Shown: piece by piece, positions 7,700 through 51,540 of the stretch | Numbering within the stretch: the first letter of the stretch is position 1 | How the letters are laid out: each line of letters starts with the position of its first letter | Assembly (NCBI GenBank): GCA_964350165.1 | Contig: CAYGJA010000004.1 | Span: 7,638-71,637, forward strand | Origin: an uncultured Candidatus Saccharibacteria bacterium | Lineage (GTDB): Bacteria; Patescibacteriota; Minisyncoccia; Phycocordibacterales; UBA1006 | Direction of reading: 5' to 3' | Length of the DNA: 64,000 bases | Translations under genes and position numbers: made by a program | Notes under the pieces: model-generated | Seen by the model: only the letters and a program-made list of their open reading frames with translations | The model's database searches: none | Told to the model about the DNA's origin: nothing

Positions 7700-10076
7700 C
7701 AGCCAAAATTCGTTGGAGAAGGCCGGCGGGGACCTCTCGAGGTTTCCTTGGTTCTCTCTCTTCATTCGCTGCCACTCGTGTTTGTTCTTTTGGGGCGGTG
7801 GCCTCGATCGAGAGAGTGCTGGGAGTAGCTATTTTTTCAAGTTGATCTCCCCTGTTTTCGTTGTTCTTCTGTGTTGTTTCTGTGTCTGTGATTGTCTGAA
7901 CTGAATTTGCTTTTGCCAATGCTTGCCGCAAAGCAGACACCTTGTCTTGGCTGGCTTGTTTTTCTGGGTCAAATTTTGGTTTGTGTGGTTTTTTTGAAAT
8001 CAAAGATGCAGCTCTGGCTCGATAAGAGTCTTCGAGGTCAATAATCTCTTCTCTGGGGGCTTTGGCGGCAAGATCGGCCAACGAGATCGTTTTTTGAGGT
8101 TCTTTTTTTACTTGTGGTTGTTGTTCAGTTACAACCGACTCTTTTTTTGTAGAAAAATCAATATTACCCAAGGCGTCTTTTAAAAGCCCCTGAAGCCCCT
8201 CCCTGTCAGGCCCACTTCGAGTTTTTTCTTTTGGCGAAAAATCATTTCGAGGTGCTTGATTTTGCAAGGGTAAATCTTTTTTTACTTGTGGTTGTTGTTT
8301 GCTCACAAAATCTCGCTGGGGTGGTTTTTTTGAAATTTCTTTTGGTTTGTTAGCTGGTCTTGGTTTTTCTGTTGGTTTTGATTTTTCTACTAGTCTTTTT
8401 TTGAATTGAGAATGGTCCCCGGTTGGCTTTTGTGGGGAAGGCTCTTGTTTTTTCGGAATTTTTGCTGGCTTTGTGTCGCCCGCTGAAGGAGCAAATTCTA
8501 TTCCTAGAGCAGCCAGGTCTGCTTTGGATCCTTGTTTTATTTGCGGTTTGCCATTTTTATCATTATTCGTGATTGCTTTCTTTTCACCGCTTTTTATCTT
8601 TGCGATACAATCGTGGCAATAAACGGGGCGCCCGGGTTGCGGTTTGAAGGGTACCGTGGCGATATGCTCACAATCATCAAAAGAACAAGGCACCCTATAT
8701 TTGCCATCACTAGCCAATCCTTCGGCGTTAATCGGCGTTTTTGCGCTGCTTTCTCCCCCCTCTCCGGAACCATTACTCCATTTGGTAATTTCGGCTTCTA
8801 CGACAGCTCGAGGGCGGTGGTAGAGCTTGCGAGATCTCCCAATAATGTATTCTTCTACTTTTGGTTTTCGCTCTAGTTTTACAATGGCGGGAAGCGTTTT
8901 TGCAGAAAAAGGTCTGGTTGTCATACCATTAACCAGAAGCTTGAGGTATACGTGATAATTAGGAAGTGACACAAAATCGTCTGGCGTAAATTCTGGCATG
9001 AATTCTGTTTCGAGAAAGTCCGCATCTGCTGCGCCAACGCGACCGATGATCATGGTTCCCACGTTACCAAATACGGCATCGCGAACCACTGTATTATTCT
9101 CTGTCTCCAGCTGCGCCACGTATTGATGAGCAATGATTAGATTGAGACGATATTTGCGGGCCTCGGACAAAATAGTTGCAAAAGAGTCGGTGACAAAGTT
9201 TTGGAATTCATCCACGTACAGATAGAAATCCTTACGTAGGTGCTCGGCTATTTTTACACGCTCCATGGCGGCAAGCTGTAGTTTGGTAATCAACATAGCT
9301 CCAAGCAAGGCGGAGTTGTCTTCACCCACTCGCCCCTTGGACAAGTTCACCAAGAAAATCTTTTGCTTGTCCATTATGTCTGGAATATTGATAGTGCTGT
9401 TGGGTTGCCCCAGAATGTTTCTAATAATCGCACTAGAGAGAAATTGCCCGACCTTGTTCTGGATTGGAGCAATGGCTTCTTTTCGGTAGCGGTCTTCCCA
9501 GGCTTCGTATTCGTGAATCCAGAACGTACGCACCACCGGGTCTTTGATGTTGTTTACTATGGTTTGACGATAGTCCTTATCGACCAGTAAACGAGGAATT
9601 CCCAAAAGAGTCGTGCCCGGAGTGTCAATTAGGGCAAGGATGCAATTGTTCAGGATATATTCCATTCGAGAAGACCAGACGTTGGCCCAAATCTTGGTAA
9701 AAATTCCCATAATACCCGAAGCAACCAAGTGTTTGTAGCGGTCGTCATAGACTTCGAGAACATTAAAACCAACGTGATATTCGATATCCGAAGGATTAAA
9801 ATAAACTACATCGTCAAGGCGCTCTTTTGGAATCACACCCAATAAGTCTTCGACTAATTCTCCGTGCGGATCGACGATACAGACACCATCACCGTTTCTG
9901 ATATCCTGAAGAGCCATATTAGAAATCAGAGTAGATTTTCCCATCCCTGATTTTCCCAGGATATACATGTGTTGCCGGCGATCTTGTCGCTGGATACCAA
10001 AAATTTTTTCATTATTGCGATAGTGGGTCTTCGCAAAATAAATAATGTCTTTATTCTTTGGTAGCTCAACATTCAT
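7686..10076 (-). CDS. Soluble VirD4/TraD-like P-loop ATPase (type IV secretion system DNA-binding-domain family) with C-terminal zinc ribbon and Lys/Pro/Gln-rich disordered tail
   Basis: Walker A ILGKSGMGKST near residue 40, Walker B FYLYVDEFQNF, no N-terminal TM helices; CxxC...CxxC (CSFDDCEH...YCHDCIAK); about 330-aa low-complexity tail with QQPQVKK repeated twice. Confidence 0.5.
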   Translation of the reverse strand: MNVELPKNKDIIYFAKTHYRNNEKIFGIQRQDRRQHMYILGKSGMGKSTLISNMALQDIRNGDGVCIVDPHGELVEDLLGVIPKERLDDVVYFNPSDIEYHVGFNVLEVYDDRYKHLVASGIMGIFTKIWANVWSSRMEYILNNCILALIDTPGTTLLGIPRLLVDKDYRQTIVNNIKDPVVRTFWIHEYEAWEDRYRKEAIAPIQNKVGQFLSSAIIRNILGQPNSTINIPDIMDKQKIFLVNLSKGRVGEDNSALLGAMLITKLQLAAMERVKIAEHLRKDFYLYVDEFQNFVTDSFATILSEARKYRLNLIIAHQYVAQLETENNTVVRDAVFGNVGTMIIGRVGAADADFLETEFMPEFTPDDFVSLPNYHVYLKLLVNGMTTRPFSAKTLPAIVKLERKPKVEEYIIGRSRKLYHRPRAVVEAEITKWSNGSGEGGESSAKTPINAEGLASDGKYRVPCSFDDCEHIATVPFKPQPGRPVYCHDCIAKIKSGEKKAITNNDKNGKPQIKQGSKADLAALGIEFAPSAGDTKPAKIPKKQEPSPQKPTGDHSQFKKRLVEKSKPTEKPRPANKPKEISKKPPQRDFVSKQQPQVKKDLPLQNQAPRNDFSPKEKTRSGPDREGLQGLLKDALGNIDFSTKKESVVTEQQPQVKKEPQKTISLADLAAKAPREEIIDLEDSYRARAASLISKKPHKPKFDPEKQASQDKVSALRQALAKANSVQTITDTETTQKNNENRGDQLEKIATPSTLSIEATAPKEQTRVAANEEREPRKPREVPAGLLQRILADDED

Positions 10077-41806: not shown

Positions 41807-42132
41807 TTACAACAACCACAAGCAGTCTTGAAAATCAGTCGCCATATGAAACAACAACCCAACAGCTATGATTCGCACGTATTTGTTTGGGTACAAAAGA
41901 AGCAAAAAATAAAAAGCAATAGCGTATCCAGAGTGCAATGGATGAAAACCAATACTACAGCGAGCAGGGTCAAATATTGGTCGAGCCAACAAATGATCCA
42001 GATCAACTAGCATGGTCCCAATCATAATCAGCCATCCTTTTTTCCAAATATCCCTAAATAAAAACCAGGCCAGAAGACCAGGTGCCAAAAAATGTAGACT
42101 GTAGTGCACCAGGCTTCTGGTAATTTCCATGA
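41807..42132 (-). CDS. Small membrane protein, hypothetical (about 108 aa)
   Basis: Start moved to the internal Met MEITRSLVHYSLHFLAPGLLAWFLF so it does not overlap the divergent gene; the longer ORF to 42376 is unlikely. Confidence 0.35.
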
Positions 42133-42155
42133 AAAAATCATAGCACAATCTATCT

Positions 42156-43103
42156 ATGCAGGATTTATGCAAGATTATAGCGGTCCTGGTGACACTACCG
42201 GCTATATTTTTGAAAATTTTCCTTCTGATATACTTTAGGCATATGCTTGAAAAAAACATTTTACATGAACAACTAAAGGCAACCTCCCCTAAGAACAAGG
42301 ATGATGATATGGAAAGAGGGTTTTTCCTTGAGGACTCAGAAAATGTCGACCAGAACCCCGAAGGCTTGACGCTCAAGAATAAGATTCACGCACTTCTCCA
42401 TTCATCGGTCGAAAAAGATCAGGAGGAAGGATTGACGCTGATGTCAGAATGGCTTCAAAAAATTCAGGTCACATATCAAAGTGTACTTAATCAAAAAAAG
42501 CGCAAGGAAATGATAAGGCAAATCACGCGAAGTGAGGACTTCGCAGAGGGCAACCTGATGGTTCATCAGGTTCAAATACAATATATTAAGGATCTTATAG
42601 ATGTGGTCGACAATGATTCTCTGAAGCAAAAACTCCAGAAGCAGCTTACCCTTATCGAATACAGTTTTGCGGCGCTTCAATATATCCGTGAATTCAACAT
42701 ACACACTCAGGCTCGTTACAGTTGGCGCAATCCAGCCCGCTGGATTGAGAAAATAGTTTGGACGAGTGCTTCTGGTATAGGTACTACTGGCCTTGGTGTC
42801 ACCATAGGTGCCGTGATGCAGATGGTTAATACCGGTAATTTCTACGAGGCCGCCGGCGTTCTTTTTGGGGCTGGCGTTGCTGCGCAGATGGTTTTTGGTG
42901 AAATAAACAAGTTTGACGCAACCTTGCGCTTTAATAAAAAAATTAAAGAGATGTTGGATTTGAGTAAAATAGCACCTGATGAAATTGAGGGTGACTTAGA
43001 GGATTGGCAAAAAGAATATGAATCAAAGATTCAGATACTGCTATCTCGCGTTAGTACTTTGCGATCGTATAACGATTTTGAAAATGCACCTCGAGAGCTT
43101 TAA
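42156..43103 (+). CDS. Hypothetical protein with N-terminal TM helix, central coiled-coil and Gly-zipper segment
   Basis: GIGTTGLGVTIGAVMQMVNTGNFYEAAGVLFGAGVAAQ is a GxxxG-rich amphipathic region; no family recognised. Confidence 0.35.
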   Translation: MQDLCKIIAVLVTLPAIFLKIFLLIYFRHMLEKNILHEQLKATSPKNKDDDMERGFFLEDSENVDQNPEGLTLKNKIHALLHSSVEKDQEEGLTLMSEWLQKIQVTYQSVLNQKKRKEMIRQITRSEDFAEGNLMVHQVQIQYIKDLIDVVDNDSLKQKLQKQLTLIEYSFAALQYIREFNIHTQARYSWRNPARWIEKIVWTSASGIGTTGLGVTIGAVMQMVNTGNFYEAAGVLFGAGVAAQMVFGEINKFDATLRFNKKIKEMLDLSKIAPDEIEGDLEDWQKEYESKIQILLSRVSTLRSYNDFENAPREL

Positions 43104-43109
43104 GGCTTC

Positions 43110-43619
43110 TTATTTTTTCTTGATTGAGATCAGATAATTAAAAATTTCTAACATCAAATCATTGTCTTCTCTTTCTTCTAGTGCCATCACCGCTTCTTTG
43201 ATTGTAAAAAACTTTCGCTCCGTCACCTCTAACTGCTCCCATTCATCATCTGAAAGCATTTTGATAATGGTTGAATACGTAAATGGTAGTACACTTTTGG
43301 GCGGATAGGGCGAGCTTTCGTCATTGTGCTCAATGGTCATATAGCCAAATAGCTTTGGTTCTGTTATTTCAACACCACCTTCTTCTTTGGCCTCTCTCTC
43401 CATGGCTTCAGGCCAAGTTTCTTCCCCTTCAATGTGTCCACCGAGCGGGTTCCACCAGCCATGTTTATCAAAAATTAACAAGACCTGGTTGTTTTCTGAA
43501 AAAGGAAATGTGAAAGGGGTGGTTATATTTACATCTTCAGGAATTTCGTTTGTTGCCCGAAAACCACAAATATAGTCAACGCCTTTTCTCTTGAATGTAT
43601 AGTAAGGAAATTTCTTCAT
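43110..43619 (-). CDS. NUDIX hydrolase
   Basis: Nudix box GGHIEGEETWPEAMEREAKEEGGV. Confidence 0.7.
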   Translation of the reverse strand: MKKFPYYTFKRKGVDYICGFRATNEIPEDVNITTPFTFPFSENNQVLLIFDKHGWWNPLGGHIEGEETWPEAMEREAKEEGGVEITEPKLFGYMTIEHNDESSPYPPKSVLPFTYSTIIKMLSDDEWEQLEVTERKFFTIKEAVMALEEREDNDLMLEIFNYLISIKKK

Positions 43620-43662
43620 GTAATTATTTAGAAAGATAACTTAAGGCACTTTTGATGCCACA

Positions 43663-44220
43663 CTACGAGCTCTTTGCTAGTAATCTTTTTTTGAGTTCAT
43701 GCCTCAGCACAAGGTGTGGATTTATTTTCTGTGTTTCAGTGATTACTTTTTCTAGTTTCAACATGCGCTTTTTTGTTCTACGGGCTGACGCAAGGAATGT
43801 CTGACCGTTTTCATTCGAGAAAACAATGTAATCTTTTTTGTTTATTTTAGGAAATAGTAGCTCAAGCATCCAAACAACGAGACCCAAAAGAAGCCCTTCG
43901 CTACCTCCTGAGTTTTGCTGGACGCTCTCAATCTCAATTTTAGTAATGCTGGAGAGTCGTATCATTTTGCCCCAAAATTCACTGCCAGAACTAAGTAGAC
44001 ATACTTTTCCATTCATCATAGATAACGTATTGATTGGAAGCACTGCCCCAATTACAAGAAATACCATAGCAGCGAATACCACAAAAACTCCCCACGGGCG
44101 ACTATGGTGCTCAGGAGTCCAATTACTGAAATTTATAATTAAATAAATACCAATCGGGACAAGTATGAGCCCGATGGAAACGAGCCAAGATTTTATTTTG
44201 TTTACTCTAATAAAGTCCAT
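43663..44220 (-). CDS. Hypothetical membrane protein (2 N-terminal TM helices)
   Basis: ORF only; lies immediately downstream of the OLD-family gene on the same strand, after a 126-bp gap. Confidence 0.35.
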   Translation of the reverse strand: MDFIRVNKIKSWLVSIGLILVPIGIYLIINFSNWTPEHHSRPWGVFVVFAAMVFLVIGAVLPINTLSMMNGKVCLLSSGSEFWGKMIRLSSITKIEIESVQQNSGGSEGLLLGLVVWMLELLFPKINKKDYIVFSNENGQTFLASARRTKKRMLKLEKVITETQKINPHLVLRHELKKRLLAKSS

Positions 44221-44346
44221 AATTTGATTATAACAATCTTAATGCAAACACCACTGTCTTTCTTTAGTTCGGAACACCCCTCAGGCGCCCTCCAAAACCC
44301 TTTGTTTACAACACTTTAAATTCTAGTGACCCCATTAAGTCCAATA

Positions 44347-46365
44347 TTAGAGAGTCCTTTTGTTTGAACCATCAATGAACTCATGTAAAGACATTAATAG
44401 TTTTTTTGTTATGTCTGGAAGCGATTCAAAGTTAATTTCTTCAGCTTTGTACATTTCAAGTAGTAACGTAGTAACCTCTAAGGCAATTGTTTTTTTTCTG
44501 ACTCCAGATGCAATACATTCAATACTATCCTTTTTATAGTATTCTAGTTTTCTTCGCTTGTCTTTTTGAGACAAAATATTGTTTTTTAGTAGAGTTCCAA
44601 TTTTTTCTTTATCAAGCCCATCATTAAAAGCTTTTTCATTTTTAAGGGCATCGCTTCTTATTTTGAGTCCTGATTTATCACTAATCTTACTATTCAAATA
44701 ACGGTACCAAACAGTGAATGGTATTAGGTTTTCTATTTCAACATGTCCGTCAAAGAAGCTCTTGCCTAACAACTTCTTCAAAGCTAGTAGCTTTTCTTTA
44801 TTTGTTTGGAGTCGTGCATCCCCTGCAGATTTACCTAGATAGCTCAAGTCGTTATCTGCTACTACAAAGTTACTTTTATGTAATGCCCCAACGTGAACAG
44901 AAGTATCTAAATGAATCACGTCTTCAGTTTCTTTAAAGTCAAAGTTATCTCTATTTATACCTCCATACTCACAGAATGCGTAGTGAGCGTCTTCTTTGTA
45001 TCTCCAATCTACCCCCTCAGAACCTTTATAAATTTCTAGTAGTGCTCGGAGGTATATTCGGTCTGTTACTCCCTCAACCCAAATGATTGAATTTGTTAGA
45101 AAGATTGAAGAGTTTCTGATTCCGAGCAAGTTTTCAATATTGCTTCTGGGGGTAACCTCATCAATCAAAAAATTTTTGTTGTTGTCTTCATCTCTAAAGG
45201 GTTCAAAAGAAAAGATGCTAATGTCTTCCTCATGGTCGAAAAGTAGGTCCAAAAAATGATTGGAATGGGTTGTTGCGAAAATAGTAGCGTTGGGAAAGCT
45301 GAGATAAGACTCAACAAGCCTCCTTTGCATTGATGGATGTAGGGTTAGTTCAGGCTCTTCAACGCACAAAATAACTGGTTCATCAGAATGCATAAACAAA
45401 GGAAATGTGGCACAGATAATAGTCTGAATACCGTCTCCTAATTCAAAAACCGGTTTTTCATCATCTCCAAGTTGAACCAATAAAGAGTCCTTTTTAATTT
45501 CTGGAATGAGGGTTATGCCTTCGGGGAAAAACTCTCGAGTTAGAAAGTCTTGAAATTCACCCACCTTATTCCGTTCTTCTTGTTTACCTAGAAGCATCCG
45601 TTTTATCTCGTTGAATATCCCAAGCCCTGTGAATATTGTTTTTGTAGGGTTATCTCCAAATATATTTACTGAGTCACGTGGTGCTGGATCATCGTCAGAT
45701 TTACTGAAATAATCTTTGACGGTCCGTTCCGCATAGCAATCATACTGAATACAGTTTGATGGAGGTACTCTATTTGATTCATGAAAGTCGTAAATATTGT
45801 TGTCATAGCTCTCTTTTACCAAAGGTCTAAGACCACGTAAAATAGGTATATAGATATGATGTGGATTCCAGTTTTTTTCTTTAAATCCAGAGTAAGGAAG
45901 CTCTGATTTTATCTTTCCAACCAACTCTTCACAAAACTGTTTATCATTAATTCCATAAGGAGCTAACTTATATGCGGGATTTTTTCGTGACTTCTCCTCC
46001 CATTCTTGGACTTTTTTTGATAGTGTTGTTGCCCAGCCATACCCGCCCTTCCAAGAGGTTAATTCAATCAACTGGTCTACGTAAGGAAAGTTTTTGTTGC
46101 TAATTGCTTCCGGGTACTTTTCTTTGTACTCACTTGTAATTCTAATAAGTGCTTGTAGATTTTTCTCGGATTTATCAAAAATAACATGGTCGCTTTTTTC
46201 AAAAACACCCCTTAAGAAGAAACTTTTCCCTGAGTTATTTTTACCAACAAAAATATTTATTCTTTTGCAGTTTTTCAGCACCTCAGGGTCATTACTTGAT
46301 GCCTGGGATACAGTGTAACGAGATTCTACTGTTTTTATGCCGATAACTGGGTTTTTCATATACAA
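44347..46365 (-). CDS. OLD-family ATP-dependent endonuclease (N-terminal ABC/AAA_21-type ATPase + C-terminal TOPRIM)
   Basis: Walker A FVGKNNSGKS; ABC-signature-like ELGDGIQ; Walker B VILCVEEPELTLHP; H-loop FATTHS; TOPRIM IIWVEGVTDRIYL and DxD (VVADNDLS). 672 aa; very AT-rich coding sequence. Confidence 0.75.
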   Translation of the reverse strand: MYMKNPVIGIKTVESRYTVSQASSNDPEVLKNCKRINIFVGKNNSGKSFFLRGVFEKSDHVIFDKSEKNLQALIRITSEYKEKYPEAISNKNFPYVDQLIELTSWKGGYGWATTLSKKVQEWEEKSRKNPAYKLAPYGINDKQFCEELVGKIKSELPYSGFKEKNWNPHHIYIPILRGLRPLVKESYDNNIYDFHESNRVPPSNCIQYDCYAERTVKDYFSKSDDDPAPRDSVNIFGDNPTKTIFTGLGIFNEIKRMLLGKQEERNKVGEFQDFLTREFFPEGITLIPEIKKDSLLVQLGDDEKPVFELGDGIQTIICATFPLFMHSDEPVILCVEEPELTLHPSMQRRLVESYLSFPNATIFATTHSNHFLDLLFDHEEDISIFSFEPFRDEDNNKNFLIDEVTPRSNIENLLGIRNSSIFLTNSIIWVEGVTDRIYLRALLEIYKGSEGVDWRYKEDAHYAFCEYGGINRDNFDFKETEDVIHLDTSVHVGALHKSNFVVADNDLSYLGKSAGDARLQTNKEKLLALKKLLGKSFFDGHVEIENLIPFTVWYRYLNSKISDKSGLKIRSDALKNEKAFNDGLDKEKIGTLLKNNILSQKDKRRKLEYYKKDSIECIASGVRKKTIALEVTTLLLEMYKAEEINFESLPDITKKLLMSLHEFIDGSNKRTL

Positions 46366-46615
46366 AGGGTATCTTTTTTTGATGTAGTAGTAAAACTTTC
46401 TCTAATCCATTAGGCAATCCTTCAAAACTCAAAATTGTTATAATCAAACTAATGACCAATACAGAACAACATGCATTAACACTATTACTCAAGGAAAACC
46501 ACCTTGGTGAGCCTTCTCGTGCTCGAACCAAGCAGACTCATTACAGAGTAAGGTTTTTTAAGTATCTAAATAGTATTGTAAACAACCCCTCTCGAGCGTC
46601 GTGAGAAGAATATTC

Positions 46616-47720
46616 TTATCGCAAGATTTTTTGGAAACTTTTTGTTTCTGGACTTACGAAAGAATTTCTCGGTGTATCTCTTTTTTCGAGAAAATTACCT
46701 ATATATTTTTTGAACTTATAGTCGTTGACGTCTTTTAATTGTTTCAATAAATCACAGTACTCACTATTGTGAGTACTAATATTTACCTGAATATGATCAC
46801 TATTGTGAGGCAATATATAATAGATTATAGCGGCATGATCTTCAAAGATGATTTTTTGTTTGAGTAAGTCTGTCTTAGGGTTTAAGATTCCTTGTGCAAA
46901 AAAAATATCTTTAGTTTTAACAACACGTGAAATCGTGATAAGTGAGTCATGATTACCATTTTTTATAATGGCCCAAATTTTCATTAGTAAATCATGTTTA
47001 AAAACATATCTTATATATCCATGTATAAAATGATCAAGTGATATTATATTATCTTTAGAATCTACTCCAGTATGTCTTATCCTCAATTTTGTTATGGATG
47101 GTGTTGCATAGATTATCTGCTGGGCCATTGCTAAATGTAAACGACTAAATTGATATTGATAAGCTGCTACACGGAAAAAATGTAGTAATACATTGTTTTG
47201 ATTGTTGATATTATGATGTACATCATCAATTGGCCTAAATAAATTATTATCGCATTCTTTACAGAATACATGATAGCCAATTTCATTATTGATTCCAGCT
47301 AATGATAATTTCTTACTACCCTCATCATCAATAATGTACCATCCGCACTTATTAGAATTAAAGTATTTTTTAAGTAAAGCTTCACCAAATATATGCGACC
47401 TTATTGTTTCTTTAGTACACCCAGGGGCTGCACAAAAACTAAATTTATTTTGAAAATCAGATTCCATCTTTGAGATAAAAGTCATTGGCACGTTTGCGAC
47501 ATTAAAATTCTTATTTTTTGAAAAATTAATCAAATGACTTAAGAATCCGTCATTAATCCAATAATTAGATTTAATTGAACAACAACTGCCGTATTTTTTT
47601 GTGCTACCGCAAAAGCATAAGTCTTCATCGCTGATACCGGTCCTCTTTTCTAGAATTTTATTTATTTTTTGTATATCAGAATCACCTATTTTCACACACT
47701 TAATTATAAACAAAATACAC
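46616..47720 (-). CDS. Cys-rich protein with SEC-C zinc-binding motif, partner of the OLD-family nuclease (function unknown)
   Basis: CFCGSTKKYGSCCS matches the SEC-C consensus (CPCGSGKKYKxCC). Additional Cys/His clusters: CAAPGC...SH and HVFCKECDNN. The ATG start of the long ORF (47800) falls inside a GC-rich tRNA-derived repeat, so a TTG/GTG start near 47700-47720 after the hairpin is more likely. Confidence 0.5.
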
Positions 47721-47741
47721 CTTATTACAGGTGTATTTTTG
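47711..47741. terminator. Hairpin (acacc-tgtaataa-ggtgt) flanked by A/T runs, bidirectional terminator-like
   Basis: Seen directly; separates the tRNA-Glu region from the AT-rich cassette. Confidence 0.4.
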
Positions 47742-47788
47742 CAAGAGGCCTTTTGACCCTTCTCGAGCGCTCGAACTAGCGCTCGTGT

Positions 47789-47809
47789 TGGTGATCCCAC
47801 GGAGAATCG
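47789..47809. repeat. 21-bp direct repeat of the tRNA-Glu 3' end (tggtgatcccacggagaatcg), att-like
   Basis: Identical to 47990..48010 inside tRNA-Glu, and ends with the CCA-bearing acceptor end. Confidence 0.7.
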
Positions 47810-47989
47810 GGGTCAAGTTTCTAAATTCATTTCCTCGCAAGCTCGTCATTCATTAAGAACTTCCTCCCCGGACTCGCTCCCCAATGGTCGGATTGCCATC
47901 CTCGCATTGGGGCCCCGCTCCGTCTTTCGATTCCCCGCATAATCAACACACGAAAAGCCCCCATGCGATGCATGAGGGCTTAACGTGTG

Positions 47990-48064
47990 TGGTGATCCCA
48001 CGGAGAATCGAACTCCGATTTCCAGGATGAAAACCTGGCGTCCTAACCGTTAGACGATGGGACC
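47990..48064 (-). tRNA. tRNA-Glu (anticodon TTC), CCA encoded
   Basis: Acceptor ggtccca/tgggatc, D-arm gtc-taacggttag-gac, anticodon stem ccagg/cctgg, loop ttTTCat, T-loop ttcgatt. Confidence 0.9.
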
Positions 48065-48111
48065 AAAATACTGGCTGAGTATACCGAACTCTCCAAAAAA
48101 TTCAATACCGA

Positions 48112-51100
48112 TTATTGTGATTCCGTTGATGTTGAGGTTTCTTCTACTGGAACGGTGCTTGCTTCTTGGGGAGGGGTTTCTGATACTTCTTCTACTGGTT
48201 CCTCTGCCGGCTCAACGATTGTTTCCTCTTCTGTGACTACCACCGGTTCCTCTGTTGCTGGCTCTTGGGTATCCAGGCCGTCATTAGTGCTGGTAGCTAG
48301 CGGTTCGGTCGATGTGGCGCCGGTTTCTACTGATGGTTCTTGTGTGGGGTTGCTTTCTTCTGAGGAGGAAGAATTATCTGTTGTTTCAACCGAACTTGCC
48401 CCCATAACCTGAGGCTCTGGTTCACCAAAGACTTCCCGGAAGTCATCTTCGGTGACACAAACATCACCAACACAAAGCTCGGTAGTGGCTACTTTTGGTG
48501 CCAGAATGCCTCGACTAAATTCAATCAAACCTTCATAAACACCGACGATATAGCTCCCCACCTGATCAGCGCTTTCACCGACCCTGCTACTCAACTCCTG
48601 AATTGCTCCAATCAAAGCAGGTACCAAATCAGCAAAACGAACCGAGATATAATCTTCGGGGTTATCAGTCTCTCTGATGTACTGAGGAGCAATGGTTTTT
48701 ACTTCCTGAGCGATCAAACCAAAAGGAATGGGTCCATAATCGTGCCTAGGATTGTCTGGAAGCCATTCAAAGGACTTGATATCAAATTGACCAAGAAAAG
48801 CCAAGGCGCTGTCTGTTGGAGTGGCGATGTTGGTCTTGAGGCGTTGATCAGAAACAGTGGTGTCAATCGTTTCGTTTCCAACATAAAGTGTCGCTGATCC
48901 AGCTCCATTAGAAGCATCATCAATAAGGTTGTTGGTAGAAGTGGCCCCAATGGTAATACCACCCGTTGTCTGAGTCTGGCCATTAATACGAACAATGTCA
49001 TTATCAAACTCTCCATAAAGCAAAGGAGTGGTGGAGGAGGAGTTATCTAAATAAAGTTTGTTGGAACCGGTTTCGGAGTAGCCGGCTTGGTAACCCAGAA
49101 AAAGATTGCTAGAACCAGTACTATTAGAATAACCTGCCTGATAGCCAAGAGCGGTGGTGCTAGCTCCGGTGGTGTTGTTGTAGCCAGAATGGTAACCAAT
49201 AAAAATGTTAGCATCAGCGATATTGTTTCTACCAGCGGAAGATCCAATCATTATATTACGATCCCCCTCTGTTCCGATTGAATTGACACGCTCTCCGATT
49301 AAAACGTTATCTGCTCCAGTAACATTAACAGCACCAGCCATTCTACCCAAAAAAACGTTTTGTGAAGCTAGATTATTTGCGCCAGCCGCCCAACCAAAAA
49401 AAGAATTTGCTGAGCTGGCAGAAGTAAGCCCGGCCCCTGCCGCCACACCAACCGCCAAATTAGAACCACTATTTGTACGAATAATGCTAGTTCCATTCAT
49501 GCTTAGCTCAGTTCCGCTGGCGTTTACGGTTGCGTACCCGCTCAAATCTAAAGCCTCAGACCAGAATAAGTTCCCTGTCGCATCAGAAGCCAGCAGTTGT
49601 CCAGACGTGGTAGCGTCTGTGTCTGGAAGGACCCAGATTTGGTTGCCACTCAAAGCGGGAGCTTCGAAACCAACGTAGTTGGAGCCTTCGTAGAAGCGAA
49701 GTTCGTTGTTGGAGCCGCCAAGGTTAAGGGTGCCGTTGATGGTGACTAGGTCATTATCAAACTCTCCATAAATCAAAGGAGTGGTGGAGGAGGAGTTATC
49801 TAAGTAGAGTTTGTTGGAACCGGTTTCGGAATATCCGGCTTGGTAACCAAGGAAGAGATTGTTGGAGCCGGCCGTATTAGTGAAACCAGACTGGTAGCCA
49901 AGGAAAAGGTTCGAGTTACCAGTAATATTGTTGACACCAGACTGGTTTCCAATAAAGAGGTTCAGGGTTCCGGAGGTATTGTCGTAACCGGAATAATATC
50001 CCAAGAAGATATTGTCATCAGCGTCGGTGCTGGCACCAGAAAGAGTACCCAGGAAAAGGTTTCGATCACCAGACACCCCAAGGACTCCGGCACCGGAACC
50101 ATGACCAAGCATTATGTTGTCATCTCCGTCACGATAATAAGAAACATTGTAGCCAACATAGAAGTTTCTGGATCCAGAATTATTTCCGTAACCAGTACAA
50201 GGACCAATGAAGATATTCTGTCCACCACTAATGTTTCCAGCTCCGGTACAGAGAGCACCAACGAAGGTGTTGTTGACACCAGTAGTGTTGACACGACCAG
50301 AGTCTTCACCGACAAAGGTGTTACCCCAACCAGTGGTGTTGAAGCCACCGGCATCATCACCAATGAAGGTATTATAACTACCAGCGTTACCAGTACCGTT
50401 GGCACCGCCGGCGTTTTTTCCGATAGCGGTAAATGAGCCCTTGGTGTTGCCTTTACCAGCTTGGTAGCCGATGGCTACGATGGAGCTGGCGGTGTTGCTT
50501 GCACCGGCGTTGTAGCCAAGAAAAGTGTTGTTGCTGGTAGAGGTGGCGCCGTTGCCGGCGTTGGTGCCAACATACGTATTATTAGAGCCTACTGTGTTGG
50601 CATATCCAGACTGATAACCCAGGAAAAGATTACTAGAACCAGTACTATTAGAATAACCTGCCTGATAGCCAAGAGCGGTGGTGCTAGTTCCAGTGGTATT
50701 ACTATAGCCAGCTTCATAGCCCAAAAAAGAAAGACCAGCTCCACTAGTGTTGGCGTCACCAGTACGATAACCAACGAAAATATTTCCATCACTAGTAGTC
50801 TTAGAACCAGCACGAGAACCGACGGCGACGTTTCTGTTGCCGTTTCCAGAACTGCCAGCCGCATACCCGATGAGGACATTGTCCCAACCAGTGGTGTTGG
50901 CACTACCAGAATTTGATCCCATAAATACATTTTGCCAACCGGTGTTACTGATTCCGGACCCATAACCAAAGAAGTTGTTGAGCGCTCCTCCGGTTCCAGA
51001 CAACGTACCAACAGAGGTTACTGATCCAGCGGAAGTGAGTGCTCTTACTCCATTCATGCTTAGCTCAGTTCCGCTGGCGTTTACTCCCGCATATCTACTC

Positions 51101-51540
51101 GAATCAAGACCATCAAAATAATCTGCTTCTCGAGCAGCAGGAACCATACCCAACGCGATAATACCAACTGGCGTACTATATGAAGGAGAGCCACCGGTAC
51201 CATCAACAGTAATACGCAGATAAAGTGTCTGATTGAGGTCAATCCCAACCAAAGTAACATCCGACCCAAGAGTTACGTTAAAAATACCGTTCGTAACAGT
51301 GGCTTGCCCTGCATTGGCGGTGTCGTGATATTCGGTCCAGATAACCGTGCTACAGTCGCTGGCAGAACAAAGTTCGAATTTGATATTGTAATTACCATTG
51401 GCGGTACTACCCGCGTCTTTGAGTTTTCCCTGAAAATTAAGAGTTTGAGAAAAATTGGAAGCCTGAAGGGAAAAAGCAGGAATCAAAAAGAAACCTATAA
51501 CAAGCAGGAACAGGCACCACTTTTTTTGGGCAGAATTCAT
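48112..51540 (-). CDS. Large secreted tail-fibre-like / adhesin-like protein with C-terminal peptidase-S74 intramolecular chaperone domain
   Basis: Signal peptide MNSAQKKWCLFLLVIGFFLIPAFSLQA. Hundreds of residues of about 14-aa Gly/Asn/Ser/Thr/Tyr repeats (NxxxGYxAGxxxTGSxN). Conserved SDQRLKTNI...FEW block of the S74 chaperone. Acidic Thr/Glu/Pro-rich C-terminal tail. 1142 aa. Confidence 0.7.
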   Translation of the reverse strand: MNSAQKKWCLFLLVIGFFLIPAFSLQASNFSQTLNFQGKLKDAGSTANGNYNIKFELCSASDCSTVIWTEYHDTANAGQATVTNGIFNVTLGSDVTLVGIDLNQTLYLRITVDGTGGSPSYSTPVGIIALGMVPAAREADYFDGLDSSRYAGVNASGTELSMNGVRALTSAGSVTSVGTLSGTGGALNNFFGYGSGISNTGWQNVFMGSNSGSANTTGWDNVLIGYAAGSSGNGNRNVAVGSRAGSKTTSDGNIFVGYRTGDANTSGAGLSFLGYEAGYSNTTGTSTTALGYQAGYSNSTGSSNLFLGYQSGYANTVGSNNTYVGTNAGNGATSTSNNTFLGYNAGASNTASSIVAIGYQAGKGNTKGSFTAIGKNAGGANGTGNAGSYNTFIGDDAGGFNTTGWGNTFVGEDSGRVNTTGVNNTFVGALCTGAGNISGGQNIFIGPCTGYGNNSGSRNFYVGYNVSYYRDGDDNIMLGHGSGAGVLGVSGDRNLFLGTLSGASTDADDNIFLGYYSGYDNTSGTLNLFIGNQSGVNNITGNSNLFLGYQSGFTNTAGSNNLFLGYQAGYSETGSNKLYLDNSSSTTPLIYGEFDNDLVTINGTLNLGGSNNELRFYEGSNYVGFEAPALSGNQIWVLPDTDATTSGQLLASDATGNLFWSEALDLSGYATVNASGTELSMNGTSIIRTNSGSNLAVGVAAGAGLTSASSANSFFGWAAGANNLASQNVFLGRMAGAVNVTGADNVLIGERVNSIGTEGDRNIMIGSSAGRNNIADANIFIGYHSGYNNTTGASTTALGYQAGYSNSTGSSNLFLGYQAGYSETGSNKLYLDNSSSTTPLLYGEFDNDIVRINGQTQTTGGITIGATSTNNLIDDASNGAGSATLYVGNETIDTTVSDQRLKTNIATPTDSALAFLGQFDIKSFEWLPDNPRHDYGPIPFGLIAQEVKTIAPQYIRETDNPEDYISVRFADLVPALIGAIQELSSRVGESADQVGSYIVGVYEGLIEFSRGILAPKVATTELCVGDVCVTEDDFREVFGEPEPQVMGASSVETTDNSSSSEESNPTQEPSVETGATSTEPLATSTNDGLDTQEPATEEPVVVTEEETIVEPAEEPVEEVSETPPQEASTVPVEETSTSTESQ

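Follow-up and report, generated by a model that had tools for sequence, protein, structure and literature searches.

We describe two neighboring genes on the reverse strand of a 64,000-nucleotide stretch of contig CAYGJA010000004.1 (hereafter, the window), from an uncultured Candidatus Saccharibacteria bacterium. One encodes an ATPase/TOPRIM nuclease of the OLD (overcoming lysogenization defect) family and the other, directly upstream of it, a protein with a SEC-C zinc motif (hereafter, the partner). An initial annotation of this DNA had read the two as a single OLD-based defense system with a noncanonical partner. Judged by its sequence, the partner is instead a distant, full-length homologue of Rugutis, a named and tested family of single-gene defense systems, and we consider it likely that the two genes are anti-phage modules in their own right, each consisting of a single gene and independent of the other. 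The island in which they adjoin is variable and AT-rich and lies immediately downstream of a tRNA-Glu gene in a Parcubacteria-like genome of the Patescibacteria (candidate phyla radiation, CPR). Both open reading frames (ORFs) of the initial annotation exist, although their most likely gene starts differ (Table 1), and the translations contain all of the motifs that it quoted: GKNNSGKS, ELGDGIQ, VEEPELTLHP, TTHS, IIWVEGVTDRIY, ADND, CFCGSTKKYGSCCS, CAAPGC..SH, and FCKECD.

Rugutis is a 359-aa protein of lactococcal plasmids and constitutes a single-gene anti-phage system of the abortive-infection type (Grafakou et al. 2024, PMC11381338). It carries an N-terminal SEC-C motif, has a confident predicted fold without a PDB neighbor and, when cloned, works against phage alone (PMC11381338). 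Mutations with which phage c2 escapes from it map to the ATPase domain of the large terminase, and expression of the large terminase is toxic to Rugutis-carrying cells (PMC12184496); a 2026 review gives the same picture (PMC13064643). A tblastn search of plasmids with the partner as query matched four Lactococcus dairy plasmids, pUCCL633A and three sister plasmids, the match on pUCCL633A being WP_137016746.1 (21.6% identity over 95% of the query, E 6e-4 in 7.3 Gb). The matched protein is 359 aa long, is annotated as "SEC-C domain-containing protein," and is the sole 359-aa SEC-C coding sequence that we found on pUCCL633A; plasmid name, length, and annotation all match Rugutis (pUCCL633_059). 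In BLASTP, the window partner aligned with WP_137016746.1 collinearly from end to end (22% identity over 335 residues, E 7e-11), and the family profile (A3, 47 sequences) aligned with this protein over 327 columns in hhalign (probability 99.9, E 5.2e-37). Given these two results (hhalign E 5e-37, BLASTP E 7e-11), the protein that the initial annotation had found unrecognizable outside its zinc motifs is therefore assigned, on homology, to the Rugutis family as a distant member.

Rugutis and the window protein both have 359 aa and an N-terminal SEC-C motif, their homology is collinear over the full length, and they have in common the core C..C..SH...FC-x2-[H/C]D-x3-F-x2-I[D/E]. For each, the AlphaFold2 (AF2) model is confident and lacks a PDB neighbor, and each gene appears to be organized as a stand-alone unit in mobile or defense-rich DNA. 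The two differ in that their identity is only ~22% and that position 148 is His in Rugutis and Cys in the window protein. Rugutis is furthermore found on a Firmicute dairy plasmid between insertion sequence (IS) elements, whereas the window gene lies beside tRNA-Glu on a Patescibacteria chromosome, and the activity, trigger, and toxicity are known only from the lactococcal protein.

In the alignment, residue V36 of the window partner ORF is the first residue in all homologues, and because of this the gene most likely starts at GTG 47695. The mechanical start at 47800 falls within a repeat resembling a phage attachment (att) site, and the N-terminal extension that it would add crosses a hairpin and then a TATAAT box. 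The SEC-C zinc motif, CFCGSTKKYGSCC, spans residues 27–39 with cysteines C27, C29, C38, and C39. The window protein itself falls below the threshold of Pfam SEC-C (E 0.012), whereas seven of nine family members match it (best E 6.5e-6) and the family profile matches the SecA zinc domain (E 7e-6); because of these family-level matches, we retain the SEC-C reading of the initial annotation. A word-indexed search found eight relatives among 5.8 billion proteins, and a full profile search 214 representatives at E<=1e-3. No Pfam domain other than SEC-C was found in the family members, and the partner returned nothing beyond the SEC-C motif from Pfam, NCBIfam, PHROGs, or PADLOC 2.0 (2023), the last of which is older than the description of Rugutis. 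The PADLOC "E2" matches of some family members were disregarded because they cover only the ~30-aa SEC-C stretch. No relatives were found in viral contigs and phage genomes.

Residues C88, C93, H101, C145, D149, and F153 are invariant in the family, and position 148 is either C or H. This conservation suggests a putative second zinc site (C88, C93, C145, and C/H148) beside a His/Asp pair. An AF2 model built with 47 diverse sequences from the profile search reached a predicted local distance difference test (pLDDT) score of 92.8, compared with 42.8 for a model built with 6 sequences. The former showed no significant structural neighbor among PDB and viral structures, and we rejected the idea that the partner is an HNH or His-Me finger nuclease with a beta-beta-alpha-metal fold, which the initial annotation had raised on the basis of the Cys/His clusters.

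The identification of the downstream gene product as an OLD-family ATPase/TOPRIM protein was borne out. Its N-terminal ATP-binding cassette (ABC)-type ATPase carries Walker A (GKNNSGKS), signature (ELGDGIQ), Walker B (VEEPE), and H-loop (THS) motifs and matches Pfam AAA_15 (65.9 bits, 6.6e-18) and AAA_21 (57.4 bits, 3.3e-15), both above the cut-off. The C-terminal TOPRIM has the motifs WVEG.TD, DND, and EIENL, with E429 and D501-N-D503 kept in the subfamily, and falls below the threshold of Pfam OLD-like_TOPRIM (E 0.08, 13.9 bits against 23.2). We base the TOPRIM reading on 47 relatives, in which the four ATPase motifs and the TOPRIM motifs WVEG.TD, GG, DND, and EIENL are at least 90% conserved, and on the best PDB sequence match, the Thermus scotoductus Class 1 OLD 6p74 (E 0.003), in which LVEGYGDR aligns to WVEGVTDR of the window protein. 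The protein has 1226 homologues, the nearest outside the window's own genome being 39% identical, and its subfamily consists of mostly metagenomic sequences of ~600 aa. PADLOC matched it to AriA, GajA, retron ATPase-Toprim, and Old, in all cases partially, and its scores against profiles with curated cut-offs were far below these (for the NCBIfam Eco8 effector, 37.5 bits against 250).

OLD classes are defined by genetic context, Class 1 being the single-gene context (review PMC10568477), and a Class 1 OLD from Vibrio nicks DNA and defends against phage (PMC12392090). The ORF list and Pfam showed no helicase, reverse transcriptase, or DUF4435 gene in 41–51 kb of the window. Pfam found no RVT domain in the scanned ORFs near the OLD gene and no helicase family among its neighbors (the Rugutis-like gene, a membrane-protein gene, a NUDIX gene, and a 315-aa orphan), and the only Rfam match in 44200–48200 was tRNA, with msr/msd noncoding RNA not found. 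As it lacks a helicase, a reverse transcriptase, or a separate TOPRIM partner, the 670-aa protein is therefore classified, from sequence and gene context, as a divergent, stand-alone OLD-family ATPase/TOPRIM nuclease of Class 1 type. It shares with the Class 1 proteins (P2 Old, Thermus scotoductus 6P74, Vibrio cholerae, and Escherichia coli YbjD) the combination of ABC-type ATPase and TOPRIM on one polypeptide and the absence of a dedicated helicase, reverse transcriptase, or AriB partner. It differs from 6p74 in that only the ATPase end and the TOPRIM start align and in length (670 aa against a chain of 528 aa); also, Class 1 genes were first described as isolated genes, whereas this one sits in a defense-type island. 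The similarity to other classes is confined to parts of the protein. GajA profiles of Gabija (Class 2) match at the ATPase C terminus and the TOPRIM N terminus (E about 1e-14), but these matches are partial and the UvrD-like helicase gene is absent nearby. AriA of PARIS (Class 4) and the retron ATPase-Toprim of Eco8-type effectors give the top PADLOC and NCBIfam scores for the ATPase part; however, the AriA matches cover that part only, and the window protein has its TOPRIM fused to the ATPase and no separate DUF4435 AriB. Unlike retron type I-B (Class 3), the locus has neither reverse transcriptase nor msr/msd RNA, and its Eco8 score is the subthreshold one given above.

The initial annotation had proposed that the two genes form a defense module and had named conservation of the gene neighborhood as a check; the neighborhoods argue against the proposal. 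We looked for an OLD gene by tblastn or Pfam within the available flanks of the 12 partner loci with an informative downstream flank (loci other than the window are referred to by L numbers). An OLD gene follows the partner in two of them, the window and L014, and no OLD gene was found in the other 10; in six of the 12, the gene after the partner is convergent. Conversely, none of the three loci that carry the proteins most closely related to the window OLD contains the partner, and the contexts of these loci are unrelated: between Dcm/HNH/Vsr and an HD protein, after pyruvate kinase, and within a type I restriction-modification operon. No OLD gene was found near the more distant members of the partner family (L020, L021/L022, and Lactococcus). 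The neighbors of the partner vary from locus to locus and include genes for Avs2, an N6/N4 methylase, a HamA-like protein, a nucleotidyltransferase (NTase), and serine recombinases, as well as IS elements and a diversity-generating retroelement (DGR). L001 is syntenic with the window through LepA, tRNAs, PrsW, an aminoacyl-tRNA synthetase, TsaD, tRNA-Glu, and the partner, after which L001 has, in place of OLD, a convergent gene of 787 aa and a serine recombinase. Two of the outcomes that the initial annotation had listed as speaking against its proposal were thus found at least in part, because the partner, on its own, matches Rugutis and the pair does not co-occur in related genomes.

Some partner loci have further features of their own. 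The island that follows the Rugutis-like gene in L001 (13692–20230) contains a serine recombinase, a DGR (RVT_1 and bAvd), and a LOOT RNA (Rfam, 88.7 bits), and a LAGLIDADG gene is found just upstream of tRNA-Glu in the same locus. Within one subclade, L004 (9520–10011) and L008 (6068–6556) have homologous ORFs of 162/163 aa (38% identity) overlapping the start of the Rugutis-like gene; these ORFs may represent a lineage-specific accessory gene. In L004, the whole block lies downstream of an Avs2 gene. In L021 (2341–2934) and L022 (2751–3344), a 197-aa gene stands 30 nt downstream of a 395-aa, SEC-C-bearing gene of a distant subfamily, and it is present in both contigs, yet their upstream flanks differ. 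A CfrBI-type restriction enzyme gene adjoins the partner–OLD pair of L014.

As the initial annotation noted, both genes are AT-rich, the GC content being 0.29 for the partner gene and 0.36 for OLD compared with 0.44 for the whole window, and the AT-rich stretch extends from ~42000 to 47700. Partner GC is uniform across hosts (0.29–0.34), with 0.32–0.44 in the flanking DNA of the same hosts. The att-like repeat that had been reported at tRNA-Glu is real and has a perfect 21-nt copy, but the copies are 201 bp apart and enclose 180 bp (47810–47989); they do not bracket the two-gene cassette. The enclosed 180-bp remnant is GC-richer and hairpin-rich and has no homologue in the other loci, and in L012, a separate assembly of this genome, the contig breaks off within tRNA-Glu. 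The claim of horizontal acquisition accordingly survives in part: tRNA-linked, AT-rich defense DNA was plausibly acquired, but probably not as one OLD system with a partner.

The partner lies directly downstream of tRNA-Glu, on the same strand and at a distance of 35–295 nt, in the window and in L001, L003, and L005 (tRNA-Glu at 9894–9966, 648–720, and 1444–1516, respectively). Both the TTC and CTC isoacceptors are represented, and there is no synteny between L003 and L005; the remaining 8 of 12 loci have no adjacent tRNA-Glu. L015 contains two tRNA-Glu genes within 4 kb. Between the two window genes, we found a conserved noncoding element of ~145 nt with further copies (nhmmer) in L014 (2095–2239), L013 (2–157), L004 (12039–12160), and L016 (4955–5078). 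It follows the partner in the window and L014, which show conservation of the first ~125 nt after the partner stop codon. In L013 it immediately precedes the partner, and in L004 and L016 additional cargo genes come before it: it stands ~1 kb past the partner in L004 and behind an extra 330-aa gene in L016. A stretch of the element aligns in register with tRNA-Glu 3' ends, from the T-loop GGTTCGA through ...TCACC, and the element also contains repeated CACGAGAAGG-type motifs. Exact matches to this 10-mer number six over four loci (window, L001, L004, and L014), all of them on the partner strand and within 1.1 kb of the partner. In addition, a direct repeat, GTTCGAG(N1-4)CGAGAAGG, has only two matches in the 64 kb, one on each side of the partner, with none expected by chance. 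We rejected the possibility that the ~145-nt element is a structured RNA (RNAalifold -2.4 kcal/mol with covariation penalty, single-sequence z = -1.0, no Rfam match); a decayed att site is one possible identity for it, and a site for protein binding another. The recurrence of Rugutis-like genes downstream of tRNA-Glu suggests a hotspot with separately acquired cassettes, and the simplest reading would be that tRNA-Glu is an integration hotspot where the remains of att copies delimit the cassettes and where OLD arrived independently of the Rugutis-like gene. A different, GC-rich conserved element of ~90 nt, absent from Rfam, occurs upstream of the Rugutis-like gene in L006 (~440–560) and L015 (~260–380), with the sequence ...CTCGCATArGC.CrCTCACATyCGTTC..GCCTGCTCGGT.C....GGGTGTTCGCTTA.

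Several observations weigh against two independent defense modules. First, in L014 (994–4109), a partner 50% identical to that of the window precedes, by 246 bp and on the same strand, an OLD gene of 592 aa (OLD-like_TOPRIM E 3.5e-7) that is only remotely related to the window OLD, with 27% identity over 131 aa. Because two partner–OLD loci among 12 exceed the naive base rate, we kept functional coupling as a rival explanation: a genuine two-component system, and a new OLD class, in which a Rugutis-like sensor or adaptor (e.g., for phage terminase) would act on an exchangeable OLD effector. Exchangeable effectors are common among defense systems, and the two loci have in common the gene order, the strand, gaps of 246–250 bp, and the conserved first part of the intergenic region, with remotely related OLD proteins. 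Against this, most partner loci lack OLD and the loci of the nearest OLD relatives lack the partner, and the conserved intergenic element is also found away from OLD (L013, L004, and L016) and looks like a cassette boundary. Both families are frequent in defense islands, so co-location can give adjacency, and the lactococcal Rugutis works alone when cloned (PMC11381338) and has no OLD neighbor. On balance, we regard a two-component system as rather unlikely.

Second, the tRNA-likeness of the ~145-nt element is modest (~15/23 aligned positions by our own count, ~65%). A further rival explanation takes the Rugutis-like gene and its tRNA-3'-end-like repeats as a small mobile cassette targeting tRNA-Glu, with the protein acting in its own mobility or maintenance (homing-type or recombination-associated), instead of or besides defense. 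Sites beside tRNA genes are often occupied by integrases. The co-oriented position downstream of tRNA-Glu in four loci, including nonsyntenic ones and both isoacceptors, the flanking direct repeat, the 10-mer near the partner in four loci, the uniformly low partner GC, and the serine recombinases or LAGLIDADG gene nearby in L001 and L004 would all fit. However, neither the sequence nor the structure of the partner is similar to that of a known recombinase, transposase, or nuclease, and the lactococcal Rugutis has a demonstrated anti-phage phenotype and lies between IS elements, not at a tRNA. Two-thirds of the loci, moreover, have no tRNA-Glu next to the partner, and site-specific islands mobilized in trans explain the linkage equally well. 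A role in its own mobility is thus very unlikely in our assessment.

Third, the identity between the window partner and its L001 orthologue, 51%, is within the 30–65% range of housekeeping genes, and this divergence is equally compatible with a resident gene passed on vertically and with mobility. OLD-family proteins, furthermore, are not all defensive; one of them, the archaeal Cran1, has its role in the cell cycle (PMC12796447). Since identity to Rugutis is only ~22%, the function of the window protein may have drifted, and the defense role of the Patescibacteria members would rest on analogy with the lactococcal protein. The last rival explanation is that one or both genes are nondefensive here, for example as a housekeeping DNA-maintenance OLD ATPase or as decaying remnants of an old island. 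This would agree with the synteny and housekeeping-level divergence of the partner in L001, with the lack of any remaining integrase in the island, and with an att repeat that encloses just the 180-bp remnant; Cran1 gives the precedent for a nondefense OLD role (PMC12796447). Yet both ORFs are intact with all catalytic and metal-binding motifs kept, and the neighbors of the homologues are overwhelmingly defense or mobile genes, which makes the nondefensive explanation unlikely.

Two adjacent, independent defense modules thus remain the explanation we favor. From the homology, motifs, gene contexts, and repeats, we infer how the defense activity in this host, its trigger, the catalytic residues, and the history of the cassettes might fit together. 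The Rugutis-like module (46616–47695) would, by analogy with Lactococcus, sense a late phage function, which there is the ATPase domain of the large terminase, and the triggered protein would become toxic to the cell and cause abortive infection. Judging from conservation, its second zinc site would hold an active or binding site together with the invariant H101 and D149, and the N-terminal SEC-C knuckle could serve as an interaction module. In the OLD module (44347–46359), a two-metal TOPRIM nuclease would act under the control of the ABC-type ATPase head and, in the manner described for Class 1 OLD, would nick or degrade DNA that is invading or replicating. Each gene probably arrived as a cassette of its own; the repeat-bearing, tRNA-3'-end-like element lies between the two, and related copies flank the Rugutis-like gene.

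The features of the locus are given in Table 1. The membrane-protein gene that the initial annotation placed downstream of OLD does encode two hydrophobic segments. The protein has no family matches, forms a cluster with a single member, and has no homologue in any OLD or partner locus; as an orphan absent from all related loci, it is unsupported as a third component. A 26-nt imperfect inverted repeat (85% complementary) brackets OLD at 44215–44240 and 46431–46456. Each arm contains TTGTTATAATCAAAyTAATG, a -10-like box closely followed by ATG; the ATG of one arm starts the 185-aa gene and that of the other a 50-aa ORF of the + strand. The repeat may reflect chance (~0.5 pairs expected, by a rough estimate) or a shared promoter of the leaderless type. 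Farther along the AT-rich stretch are a NUDIX hydrolase gene at 43110–43619(-) (Pfam E 4.9e-10; weak PADLOC PDC-S07 match, E 2.4e-5) and, on the opposite strand, a 315-aa orphan at 42156–43103(+). Directly on the other side of tRNA-Glu, 48112–51540(-) encodes a protein of 1142 aa that is rich in repeats, looks secreted, and carries a Peptidase_S74 domain at its C terminus (an intramolecular chaperone, endosialidase or tail-fiber type). As for the host, the named relatives of the window LepA (66–70% identity) are all from Patescibacteria/Parcubacteria (Pacebacteria, Nomurabacteria, Wolfebacteria, and Minisyncoccia), and one partner locus is from a Saccharibacteria metagenome-assembled genome.

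Table 1. Coordinates of the genes, repeats, and noncoding element at the locus, in positions of the window
Feature	Position	Strand	Description
Orphan membrane protein, 185 aa	43663..44220	-	Two predicted transmembrane segments (hydropathy); downstream of OLD
OLD gene	44347..46359	-	670 aa; most likely start ATG 46359; mechanical ORF 44347..46365, 672 aa
Conserved ~145-nt noncoding element between the genes	46473..46617	-	Motif copies GCTCGAGAGGGGT and GCACGAGAAGGCT; tRNA-3'-end-like stretch TTGGTTCGAGCACGAGAAGGCTCACCA
Direct repeat GTTCGAG(N1-4)CGAGAAGG, right copy	46512..46528	-	Inside the ~145-nt element
Rugutis-family gene (SEC-C "partner")	46616..47695	-	359 aa; mechanical ORF 46616..47800, 394 aa
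Direct repeat GTTCGAG(N1-4)CGAGAAGG, left copy	47758..47776	-	Flanks the Rugutis-like gene
Att-like repeat, second copy, perfect 21-nt tRNA-Glu 3' end	47789..47809	-	Repeat search; 0 expected by chance
tRNA-Glu(ttc)	47990..48064	-	ARAGORN; Rfam tRNA 62.5 bits; last 21 nt (47990-48010) are the first att-like copy

The pair thus probably represents two known kinds of single-gene defense rather than a new OLD class. What novelty remains concerns the chemistry of the Rugutis fold, the way it is associated with the repeat element and tRNA-Glu, and the second partner–OLD adjacency in L014. We give a small but appreciable chance to the reading that a terminase-sensing Rugutis-like protein gates the OLD nuclease or that Rugutis-like genes are self-contained cassettes homing to tRNA-Glu via their flanking repeats; if the homing were true, a protein family of novel structure would be linked to site-specific mobility. 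Under the favored reading of two independent modules, a divergent stand-alone OLD subfamily is documented in very different defense contexts, and the Rugutis family, described from dairy plasmids, gains members in the reduced genomes of Patescibacteria. For a protein whose predicted fold lacks PDB neighbors, the family alignment provides a conservation map in which the putative zinc site (C88, C93, C145, and C/H148) and the invariant H101 and D149 are targets for mutagenesis, and the recurrence of Rugutis-like genes at tRNA-Glu with a conserved repeat element offers a handle on the movement of small defense cassettes in CPR bacteria.

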